Source of the DNA: Coriobacteriia bacterium
GTDB taxonomy: Bacteria; Actinomycetota; Coriobacteriia; Anaerosomatales; SLCP01
Length of the DNA stretch: 64,000 nucleotides
Direction: 5' to 3'
Assembly (NCBI GenBank): GCA_030603745.1
Contig: JAUVXE010000003.1
Location: 131,923 to 195,922 of the forward strand
Part shown: positions 29,915 to 60,827 of the stretch, piece after piece
Layout: each line of letters begins with the position of its first letter
Numbering within the stretch: the stretch's first letter is position 1
Made by a program: the position numbers and the translations under genes
Notes under the pieces: generated by a model
What the model saw: the letters and a program-made list of their open reading frames with translations, nothing else
What the model was told of the DNA's origin: nothing
The model's database searches: none

Positions 29915-30487
29915 GTGCGCGTACTGATCGCCGAGGACGAGGCGCTCATCCGGATGGACCTCCGCGAGATGCTCGAGGAGGAGGGCCACGAGGTCGTGGG
30001 TGAGGCGGGGGACGGCCGTCGCGCGCTCGAGCTCGCCCGTGAGCTCGCGCCCGATGTCGTCTTCATGGACATCGAGATGCCGGTGATGAGCGGCCTGGAC
30101 GCCGCGTGTGCCATCGGCGAGGAGCGCATCGCGCCGGTGGTCATGGTGACGGCGTTCTCGCAGGCCGCCTACGTGGAGCGCGCGTGTGACGCGGGGGCGC
30201 TCGGCTACCTCGTCAAGCCGTTCAGCAAGGCCGATATCCTTCCCGCGATGCGGATCGCCCTCTCGCGCTTCGCCGAGGCGGGCCAGCTCGCCGAGGAGGT
30301 CGCCGACCTCACCGAGCGGCTCGAGACCCGCACCGTGCTCGACCGCGCGAAGGGCCTGCTCATGGCGCGCGGCATGAGCGAGCCGGACGCGTTTCGGCGC
30401 CTCCAGAAGCTCGCGATGGACCGCCGGCTCTCGCTTCGGCAGGTCGCCGAGGCGGTCCTCCTCGCCGAGGAGGCCAACGAGCGGTAA
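29915..30487 (+). CDS. pdtaR: PdtaR-type response regulator (REC + ANTAR RNA-binding domain)
   Basis: VRVLIAEDEALIRMDL...VFMDIEMP (REC domain) and VLDRAKGLLMARGMSEPDAFRRLQKLAMDRRLSLRQVAEAV (ANTAR domain). Confidence 0.9.
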   Translation: MRVLIAEDEALIRMDLREMLEEEGHEVVGEAGDGRRALELARELAPDVVFMDIEMPVMSGLDAACAIGEERIAPVVMVTAFSQAAYVERACDAGALGYLVKPFSKADILPAMRIALSRFAEAGQLAEEVADLTERLETRTVLDRAKGLLMARGMSEPDAFRRLQKLAMDRRLSLRQVAEAVLLAEEANER

Positions 30488-30560
30488 AGTAGACAGTCGG
30501 GCGCGCGGGGCGTCCGGCGGCGCGCACGCGTCCGTGACCGGGAGCGAGAGGGGGCTTGCG

Positions 30561-31919: not shown

Positions 31920-31993
31920 CCCCGCGGCACTCCTCGGCGGTACGGGTAAGGACTTCCTAGCACCTGCCAGCACACCGAGGAAGGGGAGCGCGG

Positions 31994-33655
31994 ATGCCCG
32001 CGACGCCGAGCGTGCTCATCGATCCCGAGCTCTATGACGCCGTCATCTTCGACATGGACGGCGTCATCACCGACACGGCCGGAGTGCACGCCGAGGCGTG
32101 GAAACGCCTCTTCGACGACTTCCTCACCGCGCATGCCGAGGAGACCGGCGGCGCGTTCGTGCCCTTCGACATCGAGCACGACTACCTGCCGTACGTGGAC
32201 GGCAAGGCGCGCCACGACGGAGTGCGCTCGTTCCTCGCCTCGCGCGACATCACGCTCCCCGAGGGATCCGACGACGACCCGCCCGAGGCGGCGACCGTGC
32301 ACGGCCTCGGCACCCGCAAGAACGGCTACTTCCTCGAGGCGATGGCCGAGGACGGCGTCGACGCGTTCCCCGCGGCGGTCGCGCTCGTGGAGGCGCTGCG
32401 GGCCGCGGGCGTGCGGACGGCGATCATCTCGGCGTCGCGCAACGCGGCGGGCGTGCTCGCGGCCGCCGGCGTGGACGGGCTGTTCGACACGCGGGTGGAC
32501 GGCGACACCGCCGCCGAGCTCTCGCTCTCCGGCAAGCCGGCGCCCGACGTGTTCTGCGAGGCGGCGCGCCGGCTCGGCGCGGCCCCGGAGCGGGCGGTCG
32601 TGGTCGAGGATGCCGAGTCCGGGGTCGCGGCGGGCGCAGCGGGCGGGTTCGGGCTCGTGATCGGCGTGGACCACGCCGGGCGGCCCGAACGGCTGCTCGC
32701 CGAGGGCGCCGACGTGGTGGTCGACGGTCTCGACGAGGTGGCCGTGCTCGACCGCGCGCCGATCTCCGGACTGCCCGACGCGCTCGATGCGTGGGACGCC
32801 GAGATCGCCCCGGCGCTCTCCGGGCGGCGGATCGCCGTCTTCCTCGACTACGACGGCACGCTCACCCCCATCGTCGAGCGGCCCGAGGACGCCGTGCTCG
32901 CGCCTGAGATGCGCGAGCGGATCCGCGCGCTCGCCGCTCATGCGCTGGTGGCGATCGTGAGCGGGAGGGACGTGGCGTTCGTGATCGAGCAGGTCGCGGT
33001 GGAGGAGGCGCTTTTCCTCGGCAGTCACGGGTTCGACGTGGTGACGCCGGTGGGGATGGAGCTCTCGCAGGAGCGCGCGGGGGAGTTCGAGCGGTTCCTC
33101 GGCCCCCTCGCCGAGGCCGAGGAGCGGCTCGCCGACAGGATCGCGGGGATCGAGGGCGCGCACATCGAACGCAAGAAGTACGCGATCGCTGTCCACTATC
33201 GGCAGACCCCCGAGGACGAGGTGGACGCGGTCGAGCGCGCCGTCGACGAGGCGCTCGCCGCGGCGGACGGGGCGGCGGACGGGGCGGTGGACGGGGTAGT
33301 GGACACGCAGGCGGACGAGCACGGGGCGCCCCCGCGGGCGCGGCTGCGCAAGACCGGCGGCAAGAAGGTCTTCGAGCTGCGGCCGGACCTCGACTGGGAC
33401 AAGGGCCGCGCGCTCGCGTGGGTGCTCGAGGCGCTCGGCATGGACGGCGGCGACGTCGCGCCGGTCTACGTGGGCGACGACCTCACCGACGAGGACGCGT
33501 TCGCGATGGTGCGCGACAGCGGCCTGGCGGTGGTCGTGCGCGGCGAGGGCGAGGAACGCTCGACGCTCGCGCGCTACCGCGTGGAGGACACCGCCGCAGT
33601 GGGCCACGTGCTCGAACGGGTCGCGCTGCTGGCGCGGGAAGGAGCGCGGCGATGA
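31994..33655 (+). CDS. fusion of a beta-phosphoglucomutase-like HAD hydrolase and trehalose-6-phosphate phosphatase (OtsB-like)
   Basis: The N-terminal part has AVIFDMDGVITDT...GKPAPDVF...VVEDAESGV (HAD-IA). The C-terminal part has AVFLDYDGTLTPIV...VSGR...YVGDDLTDEDAF (trehalose-phosphatase). Confidence 0.8.
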   Translation: MPATPSVLIDPELYDAVIFDMDGVITDTAGVHAEAWKRLFDDFLTAHAEETGGAFVPFDIEHDYLPYVDGKARHDGVRSFLASRDITLPEGSDDDPPEAATVHGLGTRKNGYFLEAMAEDGVDAFPAAVALVEALRAAGVRTAIISASRNAAGVLAAAGVDGLFDTRVDGDTAAELSLSGKPAPDVFCEAARRLGAAPERAVVVEDAESGVAAGAAGGFGLVIGVDHAGRPERLLAEGADVVVDGLDEVAVLDRAPISGLPDALDAWDAEIAPALSGRRIAVFLDYDGTLTPIVERPEDAVLAPEMRERIRALAAHALVAIVSGRDVAFVIEQVAVEEALFLGSHGFDVVTPVGMELSQERAGEFERFLGPLAEAEERLADRIAGIEGAHIERKKYAIAVHYRQTPEDEVDAVERAVDEALAAADGAADGAVDGVVDTQADEHGAPPRARLRKTGGKKVFELRPDLDWDKGRALAWVLEALGMDGGDVAPVYVGDDLTDEDAFAMVRDSGLAVVVRGEGEERSTLARYRVEDTAAVGHVLERVALLAREGARR

Positions 33656-36060
33656 GCATCTGGACGCTCACCTACGAGGGGTATGACCCGGCGAGCGAGC
33701 GGCTCCGCGAGGCGCTCTGTACGGTGGGGAACGGCTATCTGGCCACGCGCGGCGCCGCCCCGGAGTCCTCGGCAGGGGAGTACCACTACCCCGGCACCTA
33801 CCTCGCCGGCTACTTCAACCGGCTCGACACCGAGATCCACGGCCGCGACGTCTCCAACGAGTCGATGGTGAACATGCCCAACTGGCTCCCGCTCGCCTTC
33901 CGGATCGGCGAGGACGGCCCCTGGTTCGATCTCGACTCGGGCGAGTGGGAGATCCTCGAGTACGTCCAAGAGCTCGACCTGCGCAAAGGCGTGCTCAGCC
34001 GACGGGTCCGCGTTCGCGACGACACCGGGCGCACCACCGCGATCGCCCAGCGCCGCTTCGTGAGCATGGGCCATCGTCACCTCGCCGGCCTCGAGACCAC
34101 CGTCCACGCCGAGGACTGGTCGGGCACGCTCGAGTTCCGCTCGGCGATCGACGGTACCGTCGCGAACACGGGGGTCGAGCGCTACCTCGACCTCGACAGC
34201 GTCCACCTCGAGCCGCGCGAGGCGGGTCACGACGGCGAGCTCTCATGGCTCGCGGTCGAGACCAACCAGTCTCGCCTGCGCGTGGCCGAGGCGGTGCGCC
34301 TCCGCGTGTTCGGCGACGAGGGCCAGCCGCTCGAGCCCGCGTTCGCCTACGAGACCTCGCCGGGGCACGTCGAGTGCACCTTCGCCGTCGAGGTCGCCGA
34401 GGACGAGCTCGTCTCGGTCGAGAAGATCGCCGCGATCTTCGGCTCCCACGACAAGGCGATCTCCGAGCCGCTCGCCGAGGCTCGTGCGCACGCCGCGCGC
34501 GCCCGTTCCTTCGACGACCTGCTCGTGTTCCAGAGCCTCACCTGGAGCCAGCTGTGGCGCCGGTTCGAGACCTCGGTCGACCCGGACGGCGACGACCGCG
34601 TGGGCATGGTGCTTAACCTGCACATCTTCCACGTCCTGCAGACGATCTCGCACAACTCCATCGACCTCGACGTGGGCGTGCCGGCCCGCGGCCTTCACGG
34701 CGAGGCGTACCGCGGACACATCTTCTGGGACGAGATCTTCGTGTTCCCCCTGATCAACTACCGCCTTCCCGCGCTCACCCGCGCCCTCCTGAGCTACCGG
34801 TACCGTCGCCTGAACGAGGCCCGCCGCCTCGCGCGCGACGAGGGCCACGCCGGCGCGCTCTACCCCTGGCAGAGCGGATCCAACGGCGCCGAGGAGACCC
34901 AGACCTACCACTTGAACCCGCTCTCGGGCGAGTGGAAGCCCGACAACTCCCACCTTCAGCGCCATGTCAACATCGCGGTCGCCTACAACGTCTGGTCCTA
35001 CTACGAGGTGACCGGCGACGAGGAGTTCCTCGCCTACCGCGGCGCGGAGATGCTCATCGAGATCGCCCGGTTCTGGGCGAGCATCGCCACGTACAACAAG
35101 GTGACAGACCGCTATGACATCCTCGGCGTGATGGGGCCCGACGAGTATCACGACGGCTATCCGGATGCCGAGGAGCCCGGGCTCGACAACAACGCCTACA
35201 CCAACGTCATGGCCGCCTGGACCTTCTGTCGCGCGCAGGAGGCGCTCGACGCGCTCCGCCCGTACCGTCGCGAGGAGCTGTGGGAGCGGCTCTCGCTCGG
35301 TCGGGAAGAGCTCGAGTCGTGGGACGAACTCTCCCGCAAGCTCGCCGTGCCGTTCCACCACGACGGCGTCATCTCACAGTTCGAGGGATACGAGGAGCTC
35401 GAGGAGTTCGACTGGGAGGACTACCGCGCCAGGTACGGCGACATCCAGCGCCTCGACCGGATCCTCCACGCCGAGGGGGACACGCCCAACCGTTACAAGG
35501 TCTCCAAGCAGGCCGACGTGCTGATGCTCTTCTACCTGCTCTCCGACGAGGCGCTCGCCGAGCTGTTCGCGCGGCTCGGCTACGAGTGCACCTCCGAGAC
35601 CATCCACGCGACCATCGACTACTACCTCGCGCGGACCTCTCACGGCTCGACACTGAGCGGGCTCGTGCACTCTTGGGTGATCGCGCGGCGAGACCGCGGG
35701 CGCTCCTGGGAGCTGTTCGTCGAGGCGCTCGAGAGCGACGTCTCCGACGTTCAGGGTGGCACGACCGCCGAGGGGATCCACCTCGGCGCGATGGCCGGGA
35801 CGGTCGACCTGCTGCAGCGGGCCTACACCGGGCTCAACGCCCGCGAGGGGGTGCTCTGGTTCGACCCGGCGCTGCCCGACCCGGTCCGCGGCCTGACGAT
35901 GACGATCCGCTACCACGGGATGTGGCTCGGCGTGGAGATCACGCGCGAGCGGCTCGTGGTCACCTCCGACGCCGCCGACTCCGGCGTGTGTCAGATCGGC
36001 GTGCGCGACACGCTCCACGACTACGAGCCGGGGCAGACCCTCGAGGTGCGGCTCGGGTAG
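33652..36060 (+). CDS. glycoside hydrolase family 65 disaccharide phosphorylase (trehalose/maltose/kojibiose or trehalose-6-P phosphorylase type)
   Basis: The ATG at 33652 overlaps the upstream stop (ATGA). GNGYLATRGA...GEAYRGHIFWDEIFVFP...PWQSGS.G.EE are GH65 hallmarks. Confidence 0.9.
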   Translation: MSIWTLTYEGYDPASERLREALCTVGNGYLATRGAAPESSAGEYHYPGTYLAGYFNRLDTEIHGRDVSNESMVNMPNWLPLAFRIGEDGPWFDLDSGEWEILEYVQELDLRKGVLSRRVRVRDDTGRTTAIAQRRFVSMGHRHLAGLETTVHAEDWSGTLEFRSAIDGTVANTGVERYLDLDSVHLEPREAGHDGELSWLAVETNQSRLRVAEAVRLRVFGDEGQPLEPAFAYETSPGHVECTFAVEVAEDELVSVEKIAAIFGSHDKAISEPLAEARAHAARARSFDDLLVFQSLTWSQLWRRFETSVDPDGDDRVGMVLNLHIFHVLQTISHNSIDLDVGVPARGLHGEAYRGHIFWDEIFVFPLINYRLPALTRALLSYRYRRLNEARRLARDEGHAGALYPWQSGSNGAEETQTYHLNPLSGEWKPDNSHLQRHVNIAVAYNVWSYYEVTGDEEFLAYRGAEMLIEIARFWASIATYNKVTDRYDILGVMGPDEYHDGYPDAEEPGLDNNAYTNVMAAWTFCRAQEALDALRPYRREELWERLSLGREELESWDELSRKLAVPFHHDGVISQFEGYEELEEFDWEDYRARYGDIQRLDRILHAEGDTPNRYKVSKQADVLMLFYLLSDEALAELFARLGYECTSETIHATIDYYLARTSHGSTLSGLVHSWVIARRDRGRSWELFVEALESDVSDVQGGTTAEGIHLGAMAGTVDLLQRAYTGLNAREGVLWFDPALPDPVRGLTMTIRYHGMWLGVEITRERLVVTSDAADSGVCQIGVRDTLHDYEPGQTLEVRLG

Positions 36061-36109: not shown

Positions 36110-36131
36110 ACGTTTCCGTCACGTTTCCGTC
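36110..36131. repeat. perfect tandem 11-bp repeat ACGTTTCCGTC x2 over the -35 position of the hdrBC-glt promoter (GAAAC-n6-GAAAC on the opposite strand)
   Basis: Read directly from the sequence. It is followed 16 nt later by TATACT (36148-36153). The GAAAC spacing is the same as in the glnA upstream boxes. Confidence 0.45.
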
Positions 36132-36289
36132 GGCACCCTCCCCGTGCTATACTCCGCCTACGCCGCACAACGACGTGCGTGCGAACGTGGAACGAGCGAT
36201 GAAGCTCGCCTGGCCCGAACGTGGGCTGTGGCGGGCTTCTCTTGTTCCTCGGCCAAGACCGGCGACGACCGGCACGAAGGAGGCACCAC

Positions 36290-37672
36290 ATGAAGGAGTT
36301 CGCGGCGTTCTGGGGCTGTACGATCCCGGCGCGATTCCCGTTCATCGAGAAGGCCACGAGGCTCGTCTTCGACGACCTCGGCGCCCGTGTGCACGAGCTC
36401 GAAGGCCACACGTGCTGCCCCGAGGGCGTGCTCGTGAAGGCGAACGACGAGCATGCCTTCTACACGGCCGCCGCCCGCAACCTCGCCATCACGGAGCGTG
36501 CCGAGCTCGACGTGGTCACGCCGTGCAACGGCTGCTACTCGACGTTCAAGGAGGCCCAGAGCCACCTGCGCACCGAGTGGCGGGAGCGCGAGGAGATCAA
36601 CGAGCGTCTCGACCGCGAGGAGCTGCACTACCACGGCTCGAACAAGGTCACCCACTTCGCCGAGTGGCTCGTGGACGAGATGGGCACCGGGCTCGTGGCG
36701 TCCAAGGTCGTCCGGCCGCTGTGGGGCATGCGCATCGCGGTCCACTACGGCTGTCACCTGTTGCGTCCCCAGCCCGCGGTGCGCTGGGACGACCCGCTCC
36801 ACCCCCGCAAGGTCGAGGAGCTCATCGCCGCCCTCGGCGCGCGGGTGGTCGACTACCCCACCAAGATGCAGTGTTGCGGCGGGGCGCTCGACCGGGTGGG
36901 GGAGCGCGAGTCATCGCTCGCCTTCGCTCGCACCAAGCTGCTCGACCTCACCCGCGAACAGGTCGACGCGCTCGTGGTGGTCTGCCCGAGTTGCTTCCAG
37001 CAGTTCGACCTCAACCAGGCCGCCCTCCAGCGCGCCAAGGAGGACGTCCACGTCCCGGTGCTCTACCTCGCCGAGCTGCTCGCGCTGACCTACGGGCACG
37101 AGCCCGAGGAGTTCGGCCTCGACATGCACCGGGTGTCCGTCGCGCCCTTCCTCGACCGCTGGGGCTCTCGCACCGCCGACAAGGCCCGCCTCGCGAGCCA
37201 CTTCGACGTCGCGATGCTCGGGAAGTGCTACTCCTGCCAAGCGTGCAAGGACGACTGCCCGGTCTGCAAGGTCGATCCGGCGTTCCAGCCCACCGAGATC
37301 ATCGGCGACCTCGTGCGCGGCTACCTCGACGACGTCATCGAGGAAACGCAGCTGTGGAAGTGCCTCGAGTGCTACACCTGCCAGGAGCTCTGCCACTCCG
37401 ACATCGGCATGGCCGAGACGTTCCGGCAGCTGAAAGAGCTCGCGATGGCCGCGGGTAGCGGACCGGAGTCCGTCTCGGCGGCGTACAAGACGTTCCTCGA
37501 GACCGGCACCCTCGGCAAGCCCAAGGAGTCCGCGCGCAAGAAGCTCGGCCTCGCGCCGCTGCCGACCTCGGGAGGCAACGCCATCTCGTGCCTGATGTGC
37601 GACGACGACGCCTCCTCCGCCTCCGCCGAGGCGACCGCCACCGATCCGTCCCCCGACACCGAGGGAGAGTAG
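36290..37672 (+). CDS. fused HdrB-like (two CCG domains) and HdrC-like (2x[4Fe-4S]) iron-sulfur oxidoreductase
   Basis: The ATG at 36290 follows GAAGGAGG. The HdrB-type CCG/Cys motifs are HTCCPEG...PCNGCY and MQCCGGA...VCPSCF. The C-terminal part has CYSCQACKDDCP and CLECYTCQELC ferredoxin motifs. Confidence 0.8.
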   Translation: MKEFAAFWGCTIPARFPFIEKATRLVFDDLGARVHELEGHTCCPEGVLVKANDEHAFYTAAARNLAITERAELDVVTPCNGCYSTFKEAQSHLRTEWREREEINERLDREELHYHGSNKVTHFAEWLVDEMGTGLVASKVVRPLWGMRIAVHYGCHLLRPQPAVRWDDPLHPRKVEELIAALGARVVDYPTKMQCCGGALDRVGERESSLAFARTKLLDLTREQVDALVVVCPSCFQQFDLNQAALQRAKEDVHVPVLYLAELLALTYGHEPEEFGLDMHRVSVAPFLDRWGSRTADKARLASHFDVAMLGKCYSCQACKDDCPVCKVDPAFQPTEIIGDLVRGYLDDVIEETQLWKCLECYTCQELCHSDIGMAETFRQLKELAMAAGSGPESVSAAYKTFLETGTLGKPKESARKKLGLAPLPTSGGNAISCLMCDDDASSASAEATATDPSPDTEGE

Positions 37673-37674
37673 CC

Positions 37675-38958
37675 ATGCCGCGCTTTGAACCGCTCCTCGA
37701 GCGCATGCCCACCACCCGCACGCCCGAGTTCGTCGACCGCACCGCGCCCGGCGGCGCCGCCGGCGAGCGCCCGTCCTACACCGCCGAGGCGCCCTTCAAG
37801 ATCCACGGCGGCTGCGGCCTCATGGGCATCTGCGACGAGTCCGGCTCGCTGATGAGCGGCGAGAACGCCATCCGCGCGATGGCCGTGCAGCGCGATCGCG
37901 GCAACGGGCTCGGCGGGGGGTTCGCCGGCTACGGCATCTACCCCGAGTTCCCGGACCACTTCTGCTTCCACATGATGTTGCACGACGTGCGCGCCAAGGA
38001 GGAGGCCGAGGCGGTCTTCGACCGGCACTTCACCGTGGACCTCGCCGAGCCGATGCCCACGCGTCCCGTGAAGGGCATCTCCGACGCCCCGCTGCTGTGG
38101 CGCTACTTCCTCAAGCCCGACCCGCACCGCCTCGAGGAGACGGAGATGAGCGAGGAGGACTTCGTCGTCCACGTGGTCATGCTCATCAACTCCACCGTCG
38201 ACGGCGCGTTCGTCGCGAGCAGCGGCCGCAACATGGGCGCCTTCAAGGGCGTGGGCTTCCCCGAGGAGATCGGCCACTACTACCTGCTCGAGGAGTACGA
38301 GGGCCACACGTGGGTGGGCCATAACCGCTTCCCGACCAACACGCCCGGCTGGTGGGGCGGGGCGCACCCGTTCACGCTGCTTGACTGGTCGATCGTGCAT
38401 AACGGCGAGATCTCGAGCTACGGCATCAACAGCCGCTACCTCGAGGCGTTCGGCTACAAGTGTACGCTCGGCACCGACACCGAGGTCGCGGCCTACCTCT
38501 TCGACCTCATGCTCCGGCGCCACAAGCTGCCCATCGAGCTCGCGTGCAAGGCGCTCGCGAGCCCGCTGTGGTCCGACATCGACCGGATGCCGGAGGAGGA
38601 GCGCGCCCTCATGCGCTCGCTCCGCGCGGTCTACGGCCCGGGCATGCTCAACGGCCCGTTCGCGATCGTGCTCGGCCACAACGGCGGCATGGTCGCGCTC
38701 AACGACCGCATCAAGCTGCGCCCGCTCGTGGCCGCGCGCCAGGGCACCATCGTGATGGTCGCCTCCGAGGAGAGCGCGATGCGCGAGGTCCTCGACGCCC
38801 CCGACCGCGTCTGGGCGCCGCGCGCCGGCGAGCCCGTGATCGCGAGCGTGGCCGGCGCCGAGCAGCCGTTCCACGACGACCTGCACCTGTCCGCCGACGA
38901 GGTCTCGTGCGCCGTCACCGGCGTCGTCGAGACCTGCGAGACCGTCGAGGTGAACTAG
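37675..38958 (+). CDS. glutamate synthase large-subunit domain 1 homolog (class II / Ntn glutamine amidotransferase), stand-alone
   Basis: GGCGLMGICDESG...AVQRDRGNGLGGG...HNRFPTNTPG...HNGEISSYG. It starts 2 nt after the hdrBC stop. Confidence 0.8.
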   Translation: MPRFEPLLERMPTTRTPEFVDRTAPGGAAGERPSYTAEAPFKIHGGCGLMGICDESGSLMSGENAIRAMAVQRDRGNGLGGGFAGYGIYPEFPDHFCFHMMLHDVRAKEEAEAVFDRHFTVDLAEPMPTRPVKGISDAPLLWRYFLKPDPHRLEETEMSEEDFVVHVVMLINSTVDGAFVASSGRNMGAFKGVGFPEEIGHYYLLEEYEGHTWVGHNRFPTNTPGWWGGAHPFTLLDWSIVHNGEISSYGINSRYLEAFGYKCTLGTDTEVAAYLFDLMLRRHKLPIELACKALASPLWSDIDRMPEEERALMRSLRAVYGPGMLNGPFAIVLGHNGGMVALNDRIKLRPLVAARQGTIVMVASEESAMREVLDAPDRVWAPRAGEPVIASVAGAEQPFHDDLHLSADEVSCAVTGVVETCETVEVN

Positions 38959-38959
38959 C

Positions 38960-40471
38960 ATGCCGATCTCACTCATCCAGCCGGAGTTCAAGGTCCACAT
39001 CGACTACGACAAATGCCACAAGTGCGGCCGCTGCGTGCAGCAGTGCGGCTGGGGCGTGTACAACTTCAACGAGCGCCCCATCCCCGATGACGCCAAGTGC
39101 CGCGCCTGTCACCGCTGCGTGACCTACTGCCCCGCGCACTGCATCACCATCAAGAAGAACGACCTCGCGCTCCGCGACAACGCCAACTGGTCGGCCGGGC
39201 TCCGCACCGCGGTCTGGCGCCAGGCCGAGACCGGCGGCGTCATGCTGACCGGGATGGGCAACGATAAGCCCTACCAGTCGATCTTCGACCACCTCGTGCT
39301 CGACGCCTGCCAGGTCACCAACCCCTCCATCGACCCGCTCCGTGAGCCGATGGAGCTGCGCACCTACCTCGGCAGGAAGCCCGACGCGGTGAGCGTCGAG
39401 TCCGACGGCGACGGTGGCTTCAGGCTCGCCGAGGGCTCGGGCGTGGAGAAGAACGTCAAGCTCGACACGCCGATCATCTTCTCGCCGATGAGCTACGGCT
39501 CGGTCTCGCTCAACGTCCACCGCTCGCTCGCGATGGCCGCCGAGCGCCTCGGCATCCTCATGAACACCGGCGAGGGCGGGCTGCACGCGGACCTCTACCC
39601 CTACGCCGACAACGTGATCGTGCAGGTGGCCTCGGGGCGCTTCGGCGTGAACCCGGAGTACCTGAACCGCGGCGCCGCGGTCGAGATCAAGGTGGGGCAG
39701 GGGGCCAAGCCGGGTATCGGCGGACACCTGCCGGGCGAGAAGATCAACAAGGAGGTCTCCGAGACCCGGATGATCCCGCAGGGCTCCGATGCGATCAGCC
39801 CGGCGCCGCACCACGACATCTACTCGATCGAGGACCTGCGCCAGCTCATCTACTCGATCAAGGAGGCGACCGGCTACAAGCCGGTGGGCGTCAAGATCGC
39901 CGCGGTGCACAACGTCGCCGCCATCGCGAGCGGCATCGTGCGCGCGGGTGCGGACTACGTCTACCTCGACGGCTTCAAGGGCGGCACGGGCGCGGCGCCG
40001 CAGATCATCCGCGACCACATCGGCATCCCGGTCGAGATCGCGATCGCGGTCGTCGACCAGCGGCTGCGCGACGAGGGCATCCGCAACCAGGCCTCGATCG
40101 TGGCGGCCGGCTCGATTCGCTCCTCGGCGGACCTCGCCAAGGCGATCGCGCTCGGCGCCGACGTGGTGGCGATCGGCTCGGCGGCGCTCATGGCGCTCGG
40201 GTGCCACATGTGCCAGGGCTGCCACACCGGTTCGTGCTCGTGGGGACTCACCACGCAGAAGCCCGAGCTCACGCGCCGCGTGGACCCCGAGTGGGGCGCC
40301 GAGCGGCTCACGAACCTCGTGCACGCGTGGAGCCACGAGCTGCAGGAGATCCTCGGCGCGCTCGGCGTGAACGCGGTCGAGTCGCTGCGCGGGAGCAGGG
40401 AGCGGCTGCGCTCCATCGGCCTGGACCAGCAGACATGCGACATCCTGGGCGTCAAGCCCGCGGGACTGTAG
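38960..40471 (+). CDS. glutamate synthase FMN-binding central domain with an N-terminal 2x[4Fe-4S] ferredoxin domain (archaeal-type GltS)
   Basis: CHKCGRCVQQC / CRACHRCVTYCP, then FSPMSYGSVS...VASGRFGV...IKVGQGAKPGIGGHLPG...SPAPHHDIYSIEDL...LDGFKGGTGAAP. Confidence 0.9.
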   Translation: MPISLIQPEFKVHIDYDKCHKCGRCVQQCGWGVYNFNERPIPDDAKCRACHRCVTYCPAHCITIKKNDLALRDNANWSAGLRTAVWRQAETGGVMLTGMGNDKPYQSIFDHLVLDACQVTNPSIDPLREPMELRTYLGRKPDAVSVESDGDGGFRLAEGSGVEKNVKLDTPIIFSPMSYGSVSLNVHRSLAMAAERLGILMNTGEGGLHADLYPYADNVIVQVASGRFGVNPEYLNRGAAVEIKVGQGAKPGIGGHLPGEKINKEVSETRMIPQGSDAISPAPHHDIYSIEDLRQLIYSIKEATGYKPVGVKIAAVHNVAAIASGIVRAGADYVYLDGFKGGTGAAPQIIRDHIGIPVEIAIAVVDQRLRDEGIRNQASIVAAGSIRSSADLAKAIALGADVVAIGSAALMALGCHMCQGCHTGSCSWGLTTQKPELTRRVDPEWGAERLTNLVHAWSHELQEILGALGVNAVESLRGSRERLRSIGLDQQTCDILGVKPAGL

Positions 40472-40486
40472 AGGGAGGCGTTGCAG

Positions 40487-41308
40487 ATGGCAGCGGTCAA
40501 GGAAGCCGGCACGCCCATCGAGGGCTACATACAGGTCGACCCCGAGGTCACCCGCGACGGCGACGTCGTCACGATCGACTGCCGGGGCATCTACTACAAG
40601 CACGTCAACGAGGCCGTGCGCTCCGCGTTCGCCGAGGGAGCGACCACCGTGCGCCTCACGAACGTCAACGGCCAGCGCTACATCGGCACCGGGATCTCGG
40701 GCAAGGGGCTGCGCATCGAGGTCGAGGGCACCGCGGGGCAGGACCTCGCGATGTTCATGGACGGCCCCACGGTCGAGATCTTCGGCAACGCGCAGGACGG
40801 CGTGGGCAACACCATGAACGCCGGCACCGTGGTCGTGCACGGCGACGCCGGGGACGTGCTCGGCTACGGCATGCGCGGCGGGACCGTGCTCGTGCGCGGT
40901 GACGTGGGCTACCGCGTGGGGATCCACATGAAGGCCTACGAGGGCCACGTGCCGGTCATGGTGTGCGGCGGCAAGGCGCGCGACTTCTTCGGCGAGTACA
41001 TGGCGGGCGGGATGCTCGTGTTGCTCGGCATGGACACGCGGATCGAGGGCCCGCTCGTGGGCGGATACGTTGGGACCGGCATGCACGGCGGCGTCATCTA
41101 CCTGCGCGGCGAGGTCGAGCCGTGGCAGTGCGGCAAGGAGGTCGGCATCTTCCCGGCTGACGAGGCCGACATGAAGCAGCTCAGGCCCGCGCTCGAGCGC
41201 TACTGCGAGGCGTTCGGGGTCGAGCTCGCCGAGGTGCTCTCGGTGCCGTTCACCAAGCTCGTGCCGATCAGCCATCGTCCGTACGGGAAGCTGTATACGT
41301 ACGTGTAG
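40487..41308 (+). CDS. glutamate synthase GXGXG (C-terminal beta-helix) domain protein
   Basis: The repeats GTAGQDLAMFMDG..VEIFGNAQDGVGNTMNAGTVVVHGDAGDVLGYGMRGGTVLVRGDVGYRVG are present. The ATG at 40487 lies 8 nt after GAGGGAGG; the track start (TTG at 40481) is the alternative. Confidence 0.85.
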   Translation: MAAVKEAGTPIEGYIQVDPEVTRDGDVVTIDCRGIYYKHVNEAVRSAFAEGATTVRLTNVNGQRYIGTGISGKGLRIEVEGTAGQDLAMFMDGPTVEIFGNAQDGVGNTMNAGTVVVHGDAGDVLGYGMRGGTVLVRGDVGYRVGIHMKAYEGHVPVMVCGGKARDFFGEYMAGGMLVLLGMDTRIEGPLVGGYVGTGMHGGVIYLRGEVEPWQCGKEVGIFPADEADMKQLRPALERYCEAFGVELAEVLSVPFTKLVPISHRPYGKLYTYV

Positions 41309-41362
41309 GCACGCCGAGGGGGCCTGCCGTGAAGGTCTCCTTGCTCAGACAGTCCTCACTTC

Positions 41363-41389
41363 GAAGGGCCGCCCGGTGGGCGGCCCTTC
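41363..41389 (+). terminator. GC-rich hairpin GAAGGGCCGCCC-ggt-GGGCGGCCCTTC downstream of the glt operon
   Basis: A perfect 12-bp stem 55 nt after the stop, followed by TCTCG with no long T tract. Identical arms recur at 58998-59027. Confidence 0.5.
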
Positions 41390-41572
41390 TCGCTGCGGAA
41401 CTCGCCGGAGACCTCCCCGCCAGGCCCGGGGCGCGCGAGTGCGTGTGTGGCGCGCGCGGGGGCGGCGGGCGGTGCGTGCTGGCGGCTTACGCAGACTGTG
41501 TATGGTGCCGTATGTGGCATACTCACGCTGGGGATTCGGGGTTAGACCCACGTCAGACACAGGGGGGGTTCT

Positions 41573-41908
41573 ATGGCAGTCCAGATCGTACCGCTCATCA
41601 AAGCACTCGGACCCATCGTCGCCGCAATCGCTGACTCGGCGATTCCTGCCTTCACCGCACACAAGTCCCAGGCGGCCAAGGAGGATCCCGTGCTTGCGCG
41701 GCAGATCAAGGAGCTGCAGGACGCCTCCACGGCAAACGCTGAAGAGATGAAGGCGCTGGCCGAGCACCTTCAGGTCTTCATCGCCACCGCAGATGAGGCG
41801 GCGGCGGTCGTGGAACGCAAGATAGCCACGTACAGGATGCTGCTCTTTGTCAGTTTGGGGGTGGCTGGAATCTCTCTGGTGCTTGCGATCGTCGCACTGG
41901 CGGGATGA
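41573..41908 (+). CDS. hypothetical 111-aa protein: hydrophobic N-terminus, central coiled coil, C-terminal TM helix
   Basis: The ATG follows a G-rich SD (CAGGGGGGG). The C-terminal LLFVSLGVAGISLVLAIVALAG is a TM segment. GC is lower than in neighbouring genes. I recognise no family. Confidence 0.5.
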   Translation: MAVQIVPLIKALGPIVAAIADSAIPAFTAHKSQAAKEDPVLARQIKELQDASTANAEEMKALAEHLQVFIATADEAAAVVERKIATYRMLLFVSLGVAGISLVLAIVALAG

Positions 41909-42127
41909 CGTGTTGCACGCATAGTTGGGGCGCATGGAGGTGCTGACGTCGCCCCAAGCTCGCTCGGGGTCTAACCAGCGCATCGAGCAGAACGCCACAA
42001 GCTAGAATCGACCTGAGAGCGCATGCGCGTCTGCTCATGCGCCAACACGTTAGACCTGGCATCTCGGACCCAGGGCCGAGTGACTGGTATCTTATGAGTT
42101 GCGCCATTGATTCGCTGCTGACGACCG

Positions 42128-42832
42128 ATGGGGAGCACACGTATGGCGAAGTTCCTGAACACTAGCGCCACCAACTACTATCTTGAGGAACTCATCAAGG
42201 GTACGAGACAGCACCTGATAATCATCAGCCCGTTCCTCAAGTTCAACGACCGCATCAAGGAGCTCCTCGCGGATCTCGACCGCATGAAGATTGACATCCG
42301 CATCGTCTATGGCAAGAGCGAGCTGGCCCCTCAGGAGATCAACTGGCTGCGTTCTCTTGAGTTCGTGCGGACGAGCTTCTGTCAGCACTTGCATGCGAAG
42401 TGCTACATCAATGAACAGTCCGCAATCATAACGTCGATGAATCTCTACGACTTCAGCCAGGTCAACAACAACGAGATGGGCGTCTACATCGAGCGCGATG
42501 CGGAGCCGGAACTGTACGGTGACGCATACGAGGAGGCTCAGCGTCTGATTCGCGTGAGCGAACCGGTGCGATTGGCGGCCGACAAGGTTGAGGATACTCC
42601 GAAGGACATCGGGGATCCCAAGGAGTACGAGAAGATCACCACGTCGAACCTCGCGAAATCCCTTGGAATCAGTACCAGTGAGTTGACTGAGCATCTGATT
42701 GCGAAGGGACTGCTCGTTCGCGACGGGAAGCAGTTCAAGCTGACCGATGCCGGAAAGCAGGTCGGTGGGGAGTTCAAGTTCTCGAAGAGGTTCGGCCCCT
42801 ATTTCATCTGGCCCAGAGGCATGCAGGTCTAG
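42128..42832 (+). CDS. single-HKD phospholipase D-family (Nuc/BfiI-like) nuclease with a C-terminal HTH-like domain
   Basis: The HKD motif is LHAKCYINEQSAIITSMNLYDFS, preceded by LIIISPFL and IDIRIVYG (PLD fold). The C-terminal part has LAKSLGISTSELTEHLIAKGLLVRDGK. Codon usage is visibly richer in A/T than the host. The likelier start is ATG 42143, after GGGGAG. Confidence 0.75.
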   Translation: MGSTRMAKFLNTSATNYYLEELIKGTRQHLIIISPFLKFNDRIKELLADLDRMKIDIRIVYGKSELAPQEINWLRSLEFVRTSFCQHLHAKCYINEQSAIITSMNLYDFSQVNNNEMGVYIERDAEPELYGDAYEEAQRLIRVSEPVRLAADKVEDTPKDIGDPKEYEKITTSNLAKSLGISTSELTEHLIAKGLLVRDGKQFKLTDAGKQVGGEFKFSKRFGPYFIWPRGMQV

Positions 42833-42879
42833 CCTCGCACCCTCATCCGCACACTCGCCACCCGAGACGGAAACACCAA

Positions 42880-43374
42880 ATGACCTCGCCCAACCTCAGC
42901 GCACTCGACTCCGCCGTCCGGCACCTGCTCGGGCAGCCGTCGTTCGCCGCGACGCTCGCCGACCTCGAGCGCGAGCTCGCGAACTCGACGGCGACCTTCG
43001 TCTGGGCGACGGTCGACCTTGACTCGATCCCGGCCGAGCTTCCCGGCGAGATCGAGTCCGGCTGGATCTTCCACCTGCGGCGCGACGTGCCCTCGGGCGC
43101 CCACTACCACCCCAACAGCATCCAGCACATGACGCTCGTGGCCGGCGGGGGCGAGGCCGTCCTCGGCGGGGAGCGCTCTGCGATGGTGCCGTTCGACGCA
43201 CCCGCGCCGGTGGAGGAGCGCTGGATCGTCATCGGGGAGGGCGTCCCTCACGAGTTCGTCCCCACGGGCGGCGACATGACGGTCGTCTCGTTCCACACCT
43301 GTGGCGCCGAGGAGCTCGAGGAGGTCGAGTGCGACTCCGGTCACCTGCGGCACTACGAGGGGCCGGAGGCCTGA
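42880..43374 (+). CDS. cupin domain protein, function unknown
   Basis: SGAHYHPNSIQHMTLVAGGGE...GVPHEF resembles the two cupin motifs. Confidence 0.6.
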   Translation: MTSPNLSALDSAVRHLLGQPSFAATLADLERELANSTATFVWATVDLDSIPAELPGEIESGWIFHLRRDVPSGAHYHPNSIQHMTLVAGGGEAVLGGERSAMVPFDAPAPVEERWIVIGEGVPHEFVPTGGDMTVVSFHTCGAEELEEVECDSGHLRHYEGPEA

Positions 43375-43416
43375 CCCCGCGCGGAATCCCCGACGCTCTC
43401 GGCTCCAGCGCGCGAC

Positions 43417-43953
43417 TCACCCGCGAAGCAGCTCCAGGAGCTTGCGGGTGGTGTTGCAGTTCCGGATGGTGACCCGGGCGTAGAGCGGGGTGCCCACGAT
43501 CCGCTGCAGCCGGCTCCGGGTGGCGTCCTTGCGGTCCACCCGCCAGATCACGGCGCCGGGCACGTAGCGGGCGTCCTCGATCCCGGGCCGAGGCCCCAGC
43601 TCGTCGAGCACCTCCGCCCGGTCCACGTCGGGCTGCAGGAACACCACGTCGCACTTCGCCGAGTCGTCGTTCTTCCACGCCGAGGGCAGGGCATCGACGA
43701 TCGCCGCCATCTCCTCGGCGGTGCGAAGCTGGATCTCGGTCCGCACGCCGGTCGCCTCGAGCACCGCGTCCACGAGCATCGCCGCCAGGCCGGCGCGATC
43801 CTCGGCATCCGTGGTGAAGAGCACGTTGCCCGTGTTGATGTAGGTCGTGACCTCGGCCATCCCGGCGCGCTCGAAAGCCTGCCGCAGCTCGGCCATGGTG
43901 ACCTTGTTCGCGCCGCCGACGTTGACGCCGCGCAGCAGTGCCAGGTATCTCAT
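43417..43953 (-). CDS. DUF1697 domain protein
   Basis: MRYLALLRGVNVGGANKVTMAELR...YINTGNVLF is the family N-terminal signature. Confidence 0.85.
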   Translation of the reverse strand: MRYLALLRGVNVGGANKVTMAELRQAFERAGMAEVTTYINTGNVLFTTDAEDRAGLAAMLVDAVLEATGVRTEIQLRTAEEMAAIVDALPSAWKNDDSAKCDVVFLQPDVDRAEVLDELGPRPGIEDARYVPGAVIWRVDRKDATRSRLQRIVGTPLYARVTIRNCNTTRKLLELLRG

Positions 43954-43991
43954 AGGGGTAGCCTACCCGCTCCGCCTCACCGGGAGACGCC

Positions 43992-44357
43992 ATGACGGAC
44001 CACCGCCTGTTCTCGATGCCGTTCGCGAAGGTCTACCCGCTCTACGTCCAGAAGGCCGAGCGCAAAGGGCGCACCTCGGACGAGGTCGACCACCTCATCT
44101 TCTGGCTCACCGGATACGACCGGTCAGGCCTCGAGCGCCACCTCGCCGAGGAGTCCGACCTGCGGACGTTCTTCGAGCAGGCGCCGGCGTTCAACCCGGA
44201 CAGCTCGCTCATCACCGGCGTGGTGTGCGGCGTTCGCGTCGAGGAGGTCGAGGACCCGCTGATGCGCAAGATCCGCTACCTCGACAAGCTGGTTGACGAG
44301 CTCGCGCGGGGGAAAGCACTGGAGAGGATCGTGCGTAAGGCCCCGGAGGGCTCGTAG
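43992..44357 (+). CDS. DUF2200 domain protein
   Basis: [32 protein letters not shown] is the family signature. Confidence 0.85.
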
Positions 44358-44400
44358 GCCCGGACCCGCGGGGCGTCCGCCGCTTCACCGGGAGGTCCAC

Positions 44401-44973
44401 ATGCGCCAGCTCATCTACTCCGCACTGCTCTCCGTCGATGGCCTCATCGACGCCGCCGACGGCGACTCCGCCTGGGCCACGCCCGATCCGGAGCTCCACC
44501 GCCACTTCAACGAGCTTGACCGCACCATGGGCGCCCACCTCTACGGGCGACGCATGTACGAGTTGATGGCCGCGTACTGGCCCACCGCCGACGAGCAGCC
44601 GGGGGCGCCGGACTACGAGGCGGAGTACGCTCGCATCTGGAAGGCGCTGCCCAAGGTCGTCTTCTCCAAGACGCTCGACCGCGTCGAGTGGAACGCGCGT
44701 CTCGTCGCAAGCGATGCCGCCGAGGAGGTCGCGCGGCTCAAGCAGCTGCCCGGCGGGCCGCTCGGGGTGGGGGGCGCCGAGCTCGCGACGTCGCTCGCGC
44801 GTGCCGGCCTCATCGACGAGTACCGCTTCTACGTGATGCCGGTAATCGTGGGGTCGGGGCGGCCGATGTTCGGTCCCCTCGGCGAGCATATCGACCTCGA
44901 GCCACTGGAGGTGCGGCGGTTCGGGTCCGGCGCCGTGCTCCTGCGATACCGCGCGTCGGCGGCGGGCGGGTAG
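44401..44973 (+). CDS. dihydrofolate reductase family protein (RibD C-terminal domain-like)
   Basis: MRQLIYSALLSVDG...YGRRMYELMAAYWP...LGVGGAELATSL...GLIDEYRFYVMPVIVGSG. Confidence 0.8.
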   Translation: MRQLIYSALLSVDGLIDAADGDSAWATPDPELHRHFNELDRTMGAHLYGRRMYELMAAYWPTADEQPGAPDYEAEYARIWKALPKVVFSKTLDRVEWNARLVASDAAEEVARLKQLPGGPLGVGGAELATSLARAGLIDEYRFYVMPVIVGSGRPMFGPLGEHIDLEPLEVRRFGSGAVLLRYRASAAGG

Positions 44974-45014
44974 CCGCGCCCGTGCGTCACGGCCGCGCCC
45001 TTGCGCGCAGCCGC

Positions 45015-45336
45015 TATACTGGACACACGAATCGGCTCGATCCCCCTGGAGGACGCGCGCATGCAGTCCGCACGGCTCCGCTAGTACGCCGGCCGCCCAT
45101 CCGAGGCGGCACGCGAGGCCCCGGGACCGGGGTCTCTTCGGCGTACCTACCGGAGTCGAACATGAGCCGCCACCTTCTCTCGCCCGCCCGCGCGTCGCAG
45201 GCATCGGCGAGCACCACACCCAACCGATAGCTGACCGGTCGTCGCCTTGCGCGCGATCCGGTCGGTCGTGTGCGCGCACCCGTTGCGCGCGCCGGATCCC
45301 CGCACGGGCGATGACCCTCGGCCAAGAGGAGTCATC
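45015..45336 (+). promoter_or_regulatory. candidate promoter (-10 TATACT at 45015-45020) plus an approximately 310-nt structured 5' leader with short uORFs upstream of the RlmN/Cfr-like gene
   Basis: - A Y-shaped set of nested stems: 45084-45090 pairs with 45140-45146 and encloses two hairpins.
- A 22-codon uORF at 45162-45230, with GGAG 6 nt upstream.
- Three copies of the self-complementary TGCGCGC (45247-45292).
- A hairpin CGATGAC...GTCATCG (45309-45337) that encloses the SD AAGAGGAG and the first base of the GTG start. Confidence 0.35.
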
Positions 45337-46356
45337 GTGCCTATCCGTCAACCCCACAGCGTCTACGACCTCGAGTTCGACGCGCTCGCCGAGGCCCTCG
45401 GGTCCGCCCGCGATGCCGCGCGCGTGTTCGAGGCGCTCTACCGCGAGCGACGCCCCGTTCCCCGCGAGCTGCTCGTACGTCTTGCGCCCGCCGTGCCCTC
45501 GGGGCTGCGCTCCGTTTCGCGCCAGCAGGGCAGCATGTCGACCAAGCACCTCTTCGAACTCGCCGAGGAGGGCGGGCGCGACAGCGCCGCGATCGAGTCG
45601 GTGCGCATCACTCGGCGGACCGGAGCGACCGCGTGCGTGTCGTCGCAGGCCGGCTGCGCGGTGCGGTGCGCCTTCTGCGCGTCCGGGGCGCAGGGGCTCG
45701 CGCGCGACCTGACGGCCGGGGAGATCGTCGAGCAGGTGATCGCGCTCGGCGCGGGCGTGAACCGGGTCGTGTACATGGGAGTGGGGGAGCCGCTCCACAA
45801 CCTCGACGCCGTGCTCACGTCGATGCGCATCCTGCGCGACCGCCGAGGGCTCGCGCTGCCCACCTCGGCGATGACGCTCTCGACGGTCGGCGATCCGGCC
45901 GGGCTCGCGCGCCTGCGCGAGGTCCACATGCGGCTCAACCTGACGATCTCGCTCCATGCCACCCGCGACGAGGTGCGTCATCGGCTCATGCCGGGTACCG
46001 CGCGCCACGGCGTCGAGGACGTGGTGGGAGCGGCGCAGGCGTGGTCGCGGCGGCACCGGCGGCCCGTGACCTACGCCTATCTGGTACTGCCCGGCGTGAA
46101 CGACTCGCGGGCCGACGCGCGCCGGCTCGCGCGCTGGTTCGCGCACGGAGACGGCCGCGTGAACCTCATGCGCTGCAACCCGGGCGTGAGCGGCGCGGCG
46201 ATGCCGGTCGCAGCCGACCGCGACCTGCACCGGATGCTCGAGGCGCTCCGGTCGCGCGGGGTCGAGGCGGGCGTGCGCGACACTCAGGGCCTCGACGTGC
46301 AGGCCGCGTGCGGGCAGCTGCGGCTTCGGCGGCAGACGCGTGGCGGCGGGAGGTGA
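45337..46356 (+). CDS. RlmN/Cfr family radical SAM 23S rRNA (adenine-C2/C8) methyltransferase
   Basis: ATACVSSQAGCAVRCAFCASG (CxxxCxxC cluster plus the upstream Cys), MGVGEPLHN, and the C-terminal catalytic Cys context VQAACGQL. GTG start at 45337. Confidence 0.85.
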   Translation: MPIRQPHSVYDLEFDALAEALGSARDAARVFEALYRERRPVPRELLVRLAPAVPSGLRSVSRQQGSMSTKHLFELAEEGGRDSAAIESVRITRRTGATACVSSQAGCAVRCAFCASGAQGLARDLTAGEIVEQVIALGAGVNRVVYMGVGEPLHNLDAVLTSMRILRDRRGLALPTSAMTLSTVGDPAGLARLREVHMRLNLTISLHATRDEVRHRLMPGTARHGVEDVVGAAQAWSRRHRRPVTYAYLVLPGVNDSRADARRLARWFAHGDGRVNLMRCNPGVSGAAMPVAADRDLHRMLEALRSRGVEAGVRDTQGLDVQAACGQLRLRRQTRGGGR

Positions 46357-46377
46357 GCGCCGTCCCCGGACGGCCGC

Positions 46378-47631: not shown

Positions 47632-47634
47632 CGG

Positions 47635-60704: not shown

Positions 60705-60827
60705 GTAACCCGTTAGAAATACCACCGAAACACGAATCACGAGGCGGCTCCGGCCCGAAATCGTGCGAAATCGAAACACTGACGAAACATTCGACCCGTA
60801 ACCTGGGTGCATCCAGTGGTACGAAAC
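60705..60827. promoter_or_regulatory. array of GTAAC/GAAAC-type pentamers with 11-bp spacing (actinobacterial GlnR-box-like) in the divergent glnA / GltS-FMN-like intergenic region
   Basis: GTAAC(60705)-n6-GAAAT(60716)-n6-GAAAC(60727); GAAAT(60757), GAAAT(60767), GAAAC(60773)-n6-GAAAC(60784)-n9-GTAAC(60798); GAAAC(60823). Confidence 0.5.

Follow-up and report, generated by a model that had tools for sequence, protein, structure and literature searches.

Ammonia enters biomass mainly through glutamate synthase (GltS). According to a recent study of methanogens, the split form of this enzyme has no known small-subunit homologue, and what supplies its electrons has been an open question (bioRxiv 10.1101/2024.03.05.583561). 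A precedent for variable electron input is the proposed F420-dependent GltS, in which an FrhB-like protein is the fourth subunit (PMC3087415, PMC9012536). We analyzed a 64-kb stretch of DNA from a Coriobacteriia bacterium (64,000 nucleotides of contig JAUVXE010000003.1, hereafter the window) that contains a four-gene operon at positions 36290-41308. The operon is predicted to encode a fusion of HdrB- and HdrC-like modules of heterodisulfide reductase (Hdr), a glutamine amidotransferase (GAT), a flavin mononucleotide (FMN) subunit, and a GXGXG-domain protein. On a modest balance of the evidence, we favor the reading that the fusion (HdrB-C) and the other three proteins would form one enzyme, an archaeal-type GltS (GOGAT) in which HdrB-C replaces GltD and is fed by a dithiol. 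The genes and the probable end of their transcript are:

36290..37672, + strand: HdrB-HdrC fusion, 460 aa, proposed electron-input subunit (Pfam, NCBIfam, phmmer, AlphaFold, Foldseek)
37675..38958, + strand: class-II (Ntn) glutamine amidotransferase subunit, 427 aa (Pfam GATase_2/6/7)
38960..40471, + strand: ferredoxin (2x[4Fe-4S]) plus FMN glutamate-synthase subunit, 503 aa (Pfam Glu_synthase, 3.5e-136)
40487..41308, alternative TTG start at 40481, + strand: GXGXG-domain subunit, 273 aa (Pfam GXGXG PF01493, 3e-31)
41363..41389, + strand: 12-bp G+C-rich hairpin, likely transcript end (perfect stem GAAGGGCCGCCC/GGGCGGCCCUUC)

The four open reading frames (ORFs) are all on the + strand and have a third-position G+C (GC3) of 0.93-0.97 in a window with approximately 70% G+C. 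They are separated by 2, 1, and 9-15 nt, in agreement with the gaps of 2, 1, and about 15 nt given in the original prediction, and the gaps of 1-2 nt suggest translational coupling. A terminator scan gave no + strand match within the operon, and the hairpin at 41363-41389 has no U-run after its stem. Pfam scans of approximately 45 ORFs across the 64-kb window found no GltD-type protein (Fer4_20 paired with Pyr_redox_2), which bears out the earlier statement that no gltD/NADPH subunit lies in or beside the operon. The same scans found no FrhB-like protein, and neither a GltD nor an FrhB-like gene was among the 13 commonest flank families of relatives. An HdrA-like gene was found neither in the window ORF scans nor among the commonest flank families of relatives.

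Like other split GltS, including the proposed F420-dependent form (the MTH193 cluster of Methanothermobacter), this operon encodes the amidotransferase, FMN, and GXGXG proteins separately and has no GltD. It also shares with the MTH193 cluster a two-cluster ferredoxin domain at the N-terminus of the FMN protein and a fourth gene that resembles a dedicated electron-input module. Unlike in the F420-dependent enzyme, the fourth subunit here is an HdrB-HdrC fusion and not an FrhB-type F420/FAD protein, so the implied donor is a thiol and not F420H2. GltBD and ferredoxin-GltS (PDB 7mfm, 1llw, 2vdc) have in common with our trio the three domains, the FMN-site and cluster motifs, and a place in the glutamine synthetase-glutamate synthase (GS-GOGAT) pathway. 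The trio differs from both in that the domains are separate proteins, with an extra ferredoxin domain and a fourth cluster cysteine in the FMN domain. It differs further from GltBD in the lack of GltD in the window and in the proposed entry of electrons via HdrB-C.

With methanogen HdrABC (PDB 5odc, 8rvy) the fusion shares its folds, both CCG motifs for the two noncubane [4Fe-4S] clusters, and a pair of HdrC-type cubane clusters. In contrast to HdrABC, B and C are fused here in B-then-C order and are not accompanied by HdrA, a hydrogenase, or a formate dehydrogenase. The hosts are for the most part bacteria and archaea that are not methanogens, and the proposed direction is from thiol to acceptor. 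That direction has a parallel in TfrAB of Methanothermobacter, where an HdrB-like CCG module oxidizes thiols and an iron-sulfur (Fe-S) chain leads to a flavin that reduces an organic acid; the logic of thiol to Fe-S to flavin is the same as proposed here. In TfrAB, however, the acceptor is fumarate, the thiols are CoM-SH and CoB-SH, and TfrB has the Fe-S part before the CCG part. An Hdr-like system with lipoate-binding proteins is known from sHdr-LbpA sulfur oxidation (PMC6067878, PMC11094781). As in that system, an Hdr-like module is genetically tied to a lipoate carrier and dedicated lipoylation enzymes among the relatives of our operon, in a Bacillota subclade only. The sHdr system combines HdrA and duplicate B and C subunits with sulfur transferases and the GcvH-like LbpA and carries out dissimilatory sulfur oxidation, whereas here the carrier is an E2-type lipoyl domain and the partners are dihydrolipoyl dehydrogenase (Lpd) and GltS. 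None of the sHdr-LbpA components (hdrA, hdrB1B2, hdrC1C2, GcvH-like LbpA, sulfur transferases) was found in the window.

No paper describing an Hdr-GltS pairing was found in the literature searched, which excluded subscription-only publications, and within that literature the pairing is uncharacterized, as had been proposed. The matches retrieved instead concerned a GltD domain in HdrA or Nfn and the F420-dependent GltS. The pairing probably reflects an uncharacterized route by which electrons, perhaps taken from a protein-bound dithiol, enter nitrogen assimilation.

The evidence for the identity of the fusion comes from motifs, sequence comparison, and predicted structure. Pfam identified two CCG domains (4e-30) and a Fer4_8 domain. 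The protein has two complete CX31-39CCX35-36CXXC motifs (C10/C42-43/C79/C82 and C155/C195-196/C232/C235) and, in its tail, two CX2CX2CX3C motifs with first cysteines at C313 and C358. The motifs HTCCPEG, MQCCGGA, PCNGC, and CPSCF named in the original prediction are all present. A phmmer search against PDB sequences matched residues 3-290 to methanogen HdrB (E 3e-61) and residues 305-426 to HdrC (9sfi_E, E 3e-13). These ranges and the motif positions agree with the predicted B-then-C order and the 2x[4Fe-4S] HdrC-like tail. The AlphaFold model (pLDDT 87, pTM 0.76) is a single body with confident packing of B against C. Foldseek aligned it to the HdrB chains 8rvy_B and 5odc_B (TM 0.92, rmsd 2.0 A, 37-38% identity) and matched it to the HdrC chains 5odc_C and 8rvu_c as well. 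All 18 cluster cysteines, ten of which belong to the CCG motifs, are invariant or at least 90% kept among 25 distant relatives, and the two CCG and two ferredoxin motifs are likewise invariant or kept to at least 90% in relatives with as little as approximately 30% identity. The closest relatives (71-88% identity) are from uncultured Coriobacteriia/Anaerosomatales-like Actinomycetota. The NCBIfam matches include the TfrB model, and fusions in C-then-B order exist elsewhere (P0156, P0163, P0220).

The C-terminal region of the fusion (residues 416-460, window 37535-37672) contains an R-K-K-L-G-L-x-P-L-P motif that is conserved in the family, with R416, K418, and L421 invariant among distant relatives; this motif may be a docking peptide. 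The window protein additionally has a CxxC (C434, C437) and an acidic low-confidence tail. Two relatives in which an HdrC tail appears joined to the amidotransferase, P0261 and the frameshift-like P0172, were set aside as Rosetta-stone evidence because they are possible assembly or gene-calling artefacts. The genes are only 2 nt apart and these could be real fusions or products of read-through or assembly.

The other three genes form an archaeal-type split GltS by every sequence feature tested, with catalysis predicted, and the Pfam domains and GltS motifs confirm the three-way split that had been proposed. The amidotransferase matches GATase_2/6/7 weakly (1.4e-8), and its presumed nucleophile, Cys47, is preceded by a 46-aa N-terminal leader. 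The motif G-G-C47-G-L-M-G lies behind a leader of 10-60 aa in 17 of 18 homologues examined, the exception being L129, whose examined sequence ends before the Cys motif. This conserved leader suggests that a propeptide is removed. At the N-terminus of the FMN subunit are two CX2CX2CX3C motifs, starting at C19 and C47, with Fer4 family matches at residues 10-72. This subunit matches GltS large chains at E 1e-65 and is approximately 50% identical to authentic GltS across the core. Alignment to 7mfm_G and 1llw_A showed that it retains QGAKPG.GG.LPG and ISP.PHHDIYSIEDL, along with all three cluster cysteines found in the bacterial and plant enzymes, and that it has a fourth one, C418, in addition. 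In some relatives another gene lies between the FMN and GXGXG genes, encoding a 23S_rRNA_IVP-family four-helix bundle in L085/L086 (12480-12866) and a HEAT-repeat protein in L091 (11999-13087).

We examined whether the HdrB-C and GltS genes stay together in other genomes. Loci came from three sources: 80 species-representative genomes that encode close relatives (the clade of the window), distant full-length B-then-C fusions with 34-54% identity from an exhaustive HMMER search of 50%-identity representatives, and 80 metagenome loci seeded with a Bacillota-type sub-alignment. Neighbors were detected by tblastn with the window proteins and their counterparts from a Bacillota locus (L083). GltS genes were beside the fusion in 164 of 171 loci, and all seven exceptions end within 312 nt of the Hdr gene. 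Thus, in every one of the 164 informative loci the fusion adjoins GAT, FMN, and GXGXG genes, and none of these loci showed the fusion apart from GltS genes. The linked fusions share 34-88% identity and are from Coriobacteriia-like Actinomycetota, Bacillota, 'Deltaproteobacteria'/Acidulodesulfobacterium, a metagenome-assembled genome (MAG) of Lokiarchaeia, and a second archaeon whose locus has Cdc6, Pcc1, and prefoldin genes among its neighbors. Both archaea belong to the distant representatives with 34-44% identity. At least six gene orders occur. With H for HdrB-C, A for GAT, F for FMN, X for GXGXG, and LCP for the lipoyl carrier, most loci are H-A-F-X, and others are A-F-X-H, A-H-F-X, X-Lpd-LCP-H-A-F, and A-F-X-Lpd-(LipB)-LipA-(LCP)-H. 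That the linkage is kept despite rearrangement is a signature of functional coupling. The synteny that the original prediction called for between the Hdr-like gene and the split GltS genes is therefore conserved, and its extent across phyla and across both domains argues that the Hdr-like module may well be the electron entry of this GltS.

Unbiased clustering of all flanking ORFs was used to rank further neighbors. The commonest was glutamine synthetase (57 loci), directly upstream or directly after the GXGXG gene, followed by a PdtaS-like kinase (42 loci), an ANTAR response regulator (38), and an OmpR-type regulator (34). These neighbors place the module in GS-GOGAT nitrogen assimilation, and the glnA linkage in 57 loci indirectly supports the predicted conversion of glutamine, 2-oxoglutarate, and two electrons to two glutamate. 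Spore-forming Bacillota loci with the order A-F-X-H (L087 9401-10564, L097 8560-8907) have extra genes after the HdrB-C gene, for a 235-aa nitrite/sulfite-reductase-like hemoprotein domain and a 147-aa cysteine-rich protein that belongs to no family; these proteins may be clients or partners of the HdrB-C module.

The gene content of a Bacillota subclade bears on the nature of the donor. In L083 and L084 the order is GAT, FMN, GXGXG, dihydrolipoyl dehydrogenase, LipB, LipA, a 77-aa lipoyl domain, and HdrBC, and in L175 it is glnA-glnA-GAT-FMN-GXGXG-Lpd-LipB-LipA-LCP-HdrBC. Lpd and LipA are in the cluster of L096, and Lpd and the carrier are directly before HdrBC in L092-L094, L098, and L099. 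The Lpd of L083 passes its NCBIfam equivalog cut-off (TIGR01350, 569 bits against 409), as do LipB and LipA, and the 77-aa carrier is an E2-type lipoyl domain (PF00364). The presence of a dedicated lipoylation machinery, a carrier, and an NAD(P)H-linked reductase beside an HdrB-type site suggests a lipoyl electron route, and the earlier idea of a thiol/disulfide donor gains support from these genes lying between the GltS and HdrB-C genes. In this subclade, gene content suggests a route from NAD(P)H through Lpd, the dihydrolipoyl carrier, the HdrB noncubane clusters, the HdrC clusters, and the ferredoxin domain to FMN. Other properties of lipoate are consistent with such a route. The lipoamide couple (about -0.29 V) is clearly more negative than that of 2-oxoglutarate+NH4+/glutamate, the lipoyl arm is reminiscent of coenzyme B with its thiol-terminated acyl chain, and in thiol:fumarate reductase an HdrB-like module already runs in the thiol-oxidizing direction.

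We propose that the HdrB half would oxidize a dithiol to a disulfide at two noncubane [4Fe-4S] clusters, the reverse of heterodisulfide reductase, and that the two electrons would cross the two HdrC-type cubane clusters. From there they would pass to the two clusters of the ferredoxin domain, the cluster of the FMN subunit, and finally FMN. The Ntn amidotransferase would free ammonia from glutamine, FMN would reduce the 2-iminoglutarate made from this ammonia and 2-oxoglutarate, and the GXGXG subunit would be structural. The likeliest dithiol would be a protein-bound dihydrolipoyl group kept reduced by dihydrolipoyl dehydrogenase, which is encoded in the cluster in the Bacillota subclade. The analysis shows the domain content, the cofactor-binding motifs, the fold, and the conservation of the linkage and of the regulatory elements, and from these we infer complex formation, the direction of electron flow, and the identity of the donor. 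The parts of this proposal differ in strength. It is likely that the HdrB-C protein is a redox subunit of this GltS, and the case for a dithiol as the electron donor is somewhat better than even, whereas a lipoyl protein as the donor in this particular organism is a rather doubtful candidate. Conceivable donors in the window organism range from a housekeeping lipoyl protein or thioredoxin to a different thiol or even a non-thiol. More broadly, we tentatively suggest a widespread unrecognized class of dithiol-driven GltS with HdrB-type entry in anaerobic Bacteria and Archaea, including Asgard archaea, with a lipoyl carrier and Lpd in at least some lineages.

Several results weigh against this proposal. 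The fusion misses the NCBIfam equivalog cut-offs for HdrB (TIGR03288, 263 bits against 345) and HdrC (58 bits against 160), and scores 127 with NF041780, for which the cut-off is 450. Foldseek also retrieves LutA and EtfD, and CCG-domain proteins such as LutA, GlcF, GlpC, SdhE, and EtfD have no known disulfide substrate. The fusions linked to Lpd and LCP form a single subclade of the HdrB-C tree, approximately 43-46% identical to the window protein, which weakens extrapolation to the clade of the window; Lpd and LCP are missing in the window, as they are in every one of the 80 flanks from the window clade. We considered whether the stand-alone lipoyl carrier is exclusive to Hdr-GltS clusters and rejected this, since three of four contexts are without Hdr and GltS. 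The carrier occurs without either in an Omnitrophica MAG, Ca. Brocadia, and Desulfolucanica, so lipoyl involvement cannot be generalized from the carrier. Finally, the gltD negative covers the 64-kb window, and the genome may encode a gltD elsewhere. The fusion is HdrB/HdrC-like in motifs and fold and is not an orthologue of methanogenic Hdr, because its scores are below the cut-offs, there is no HdrA partner, and the hosts are not expected to make CoM or CoB.

Some of these carriers have contexts of their own. In the Omnitrophica MAG (L174 7021-9240), Lpd, LipB, and a stand-alone lipoyl domain form a mini-module that adjoins aminotransferase, aconitase-like, and isocitrate-dehydrogenase-like genes. 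Of the related carriers in L173 and L172, the one in Ca. Brocadia is alone and the one in Desulfolucanica intricata is beside DsbD/thioredoxin genes. The Lpd-LipB-lipoyl mini-module may be a general relay of reductant from NADH to a lipoyl protein.

The alternative that survives best keeps HdrB-C as a GltS subunit that would serve only as an Fe-S wire or for docking, with the electrons coming from a non-thiol source, for example reduced ferredoxin, a quinol, or a different redox protein. The CCG clusters would then carry out no disulfide chemistry, as in LutA, GlcF, GlpC, SdhE, or EtfD. We regard this as unlikely and still deserving of weight: the Foldseek and NCBIfam matches extend to LutA, EtfD, SdhE, GlcF, and GlpC, a dedicated thiol carrier is not encoded close by in most loci, the window among them, and the hosts are anaerobes, in which reduced ferredoxin is plentiful. 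However, the FMN subunit has a ferredoxin-like entry domain of its own, and a 460-aa module with two intact noncubane sites would be superfluous as a wire. True HdrB is also by far the closest protein in sequence (E 3e-61) and in fold (TM 0.92), and the in-cluster Lpd, LipB, LipA, and LCP genes are hard to explain without thiol chemistry.

A dithiol-fed synthase could also be imagined to run backwards, with glutamate oxidized at FMN and HdrB-C reducing a disulfide on a lipoyl protein that passes electrons via Lpd to NAD+, making the enzyme a catabolic glutamate:disulfide oxidoreductase. Disulfide reduction is the normal activity of HdrB, Lpd can work in both directions, and isolated GltS FMN domains can oxidize glutamate with artificial acceptors. 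Nevertheless, the amidotransferase subunit, whose catalytic Cys is conserved, is never missing, and the links to glnA, a GlnR-like regulator, and a GlnR-like box indicate assimilation, leaving this direction very improbable. It is at least as improbable that the trio is a paralogous amidotransferase/FMN enzyme with another product, as in the N-methylglutamate synthase MgsABC or in GlxBCD. Split GltS-like trios with other functions do exist, MgsABC being one, and the Pfam match of the amidotransferase is weak (1.4e-8), but the 2-oxoglutarate/FMN motifs and cluster cysteines of GltS are retained in the FMN subunit, which has approximately 50% core identity to authentic GltS. In addition, GOGAT needs an external electron-input chain (here the ferredoxin domain plus HdrB-C), whereas N-methylglutamate synthase catalyzes a reaction without net transfer of electrons, and glnA is the commonest neighbor. 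Hardest to credit is an adjacency without functional meaning, in which HdrB-C serves an unrelated thiol redox reaction and GltD or another partner encoded elsewhere supplies the electrons; the genome was inspected over 64 kb and a gltD outside that range would fit this idea, but linkage in all 164 informative loci in several gene orders and both domains, gaps of 1-2 nt that suggest translational coupling, and a fusion family never seen away from GltS genes speak against it.

The favored reading, a GltS supplied with electrons through HdrB-C, would have several consequences. The locus and its approximately 170 relatives offer a concrete, testable answer to the question of the donor for one large branch of split GltS. 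If the reading is correct, heterodisulfide-reductase chemistry would reach from energy metabolism into biosynthesis, in its first anabolic, nitrogen-assimilating use, and lipoate would have a role beyond 2-oxoacid cleavage, glycine cleavage, and sulfur oxidation. Thiol redox state would be coupled to nitrogen assimilation in anaerobes. Thousands of genes annotated as 'heterodisulfide reductase-related' could then be re-annotated; the present label leads attempts to reconstruct the metabolism of uncultured Actinomycetota, Bacillota, and Asgard archaea astray.

The region upstream of the operon and the nearby regulatory genes contain these features:

36112..36127, + strand: GTTTC-n6-GTTTC direct repeat (GlnR-like box) that overlaps the -35 region (pattern count and conservation)
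36145..36153, + strand: extended -10 element TGCTATACT (read from the sequence)
36165..36248, + strand: candidate leader attenuator (fold z = -3.4)
36165-36178, + strand: leader hairpin 1, loop AACGAC (fold and alignment)
36194-36207, + strand: leader hairpin 2, loop GAUGAA (fold and alignment)
36201-36239, U-rich tail to 36248, + strand: terminator with its 5' arm overlapping hairpin 2 (fold and alignment)
28348-29910, + strand: PdtaS-like histidine kinase, candidate regulator of the leader (Pfam)
29915-30487, + strand: ANTAR response regulator, candidate regulator of the leader (Pfam)
60716..60731 and 60773..60788, - strand: two further GTTTC-n6-GTTTC boxes, between an FMN-like gene and glnA (pattern match)
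60886-62222, + strand: glnA (Pfam)
62223-63008, + strand: OmpR-type GlnR-like regulator ORF, directly after glnA (Pfam)

The GTTTC-n6-GTTTC pattern has three matches in the window against 0.68 expected. It occurs 145-240 nt upstream of the HdrB-C start in approximately 56 relatives with a spacer of free sequence, and this conservation of the repeat with a free spacer is a phylogenetic footprint of a putative binding site. Actinobacterial GlnR boxes at promoters have 5-nt half sites with 11-nt periodicity, and the GTTTC half sites match only the GAAAC-type site of the Streptomyces GlnR consensus. The repeat is conserved in relatives and otherwise present only at the glnA intergenic region of the window, which supports the suggestion made earlier that GlnR-like repeats may tie the operon to nitrogen control. 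Twenty-four aligned relatives share an extended -10 element, TGnTAnAnT. A generic sigma-70 scan found no promoter upstream of the operon, since this element lacks a -35 match.

Hairpin 1 and the terminator of the leader show compensatory changes in a 24-sequence alignment of relatives. In these relatives, hairpin 1 has the hexaloop AACGNC (for example AACGGC), hairpin 2 is a near-invariant GAGC-AAUGAC-GCUC, and the terminator has a U-run. The window deviates from them in the loop of hairpin 2, which is GAUGAA instead of AAUGAC, and in its weak U-run. An Rfam search of the leader matched no family. Two hexaloop hairpins with A at position 1 and G at position 4, the second of which competes with a terminator, presumably correspond to the ANTAR antiterminator design. 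Orthologues of the kinase and ANTAR regulator are directly upstream of the operon in 38-42 relatives, and the leader is a candidate ANTAR-type attenuator, which fits the upstream ANTAR regulator and kinase in most relatives. Orthologues of glnA and the OmpR-type regulator lie directly after the GXGXG gene in many relatives. Expression of the operon would then follow nitrogen status via the GlnR-like promoter box and the ANTAR-type antitermination leader.

Compared with its relatives, the window has two blocks of genes that break a contiguous cluster of the kinase, ANTAR regulator, operon, glnA, and regulator. The first (30378-36060), between the regulators and the operon, encodes MgtE, a HAD/trehalose-phosphatase fusion, and a GH65 phosphorylase. 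The second (approximately 41300-59000, about 17.7 kb) lies between the operon and glnA and includes the lowest G+C of the window (0.64 at 42-44 kb) and a gene for a PLD-like nuclease (42128-42832). Divergent from glnA and behind the GTTTC boxes is the FMN-like gene (59069-60694, - strand), which is predicted to encode a 541-aa protein with a weak match to the Glu_synthase FMN domain (1.1e-14), a KWGQGAK motif, and an N-terminal CxxCxxxCxxxC. This protein matched no NCBIfam family and is encoded beside glnA in relatives (for example L052, L006, and L031). With it, the nitrogen regulon may include a second GltS-like enzyme. The only tRNA gene of the window, for tRNA-Leu(CAA) (26627-26713, - strand), is flanked by an MFS transporter gene and an HD-GYP-type gene.

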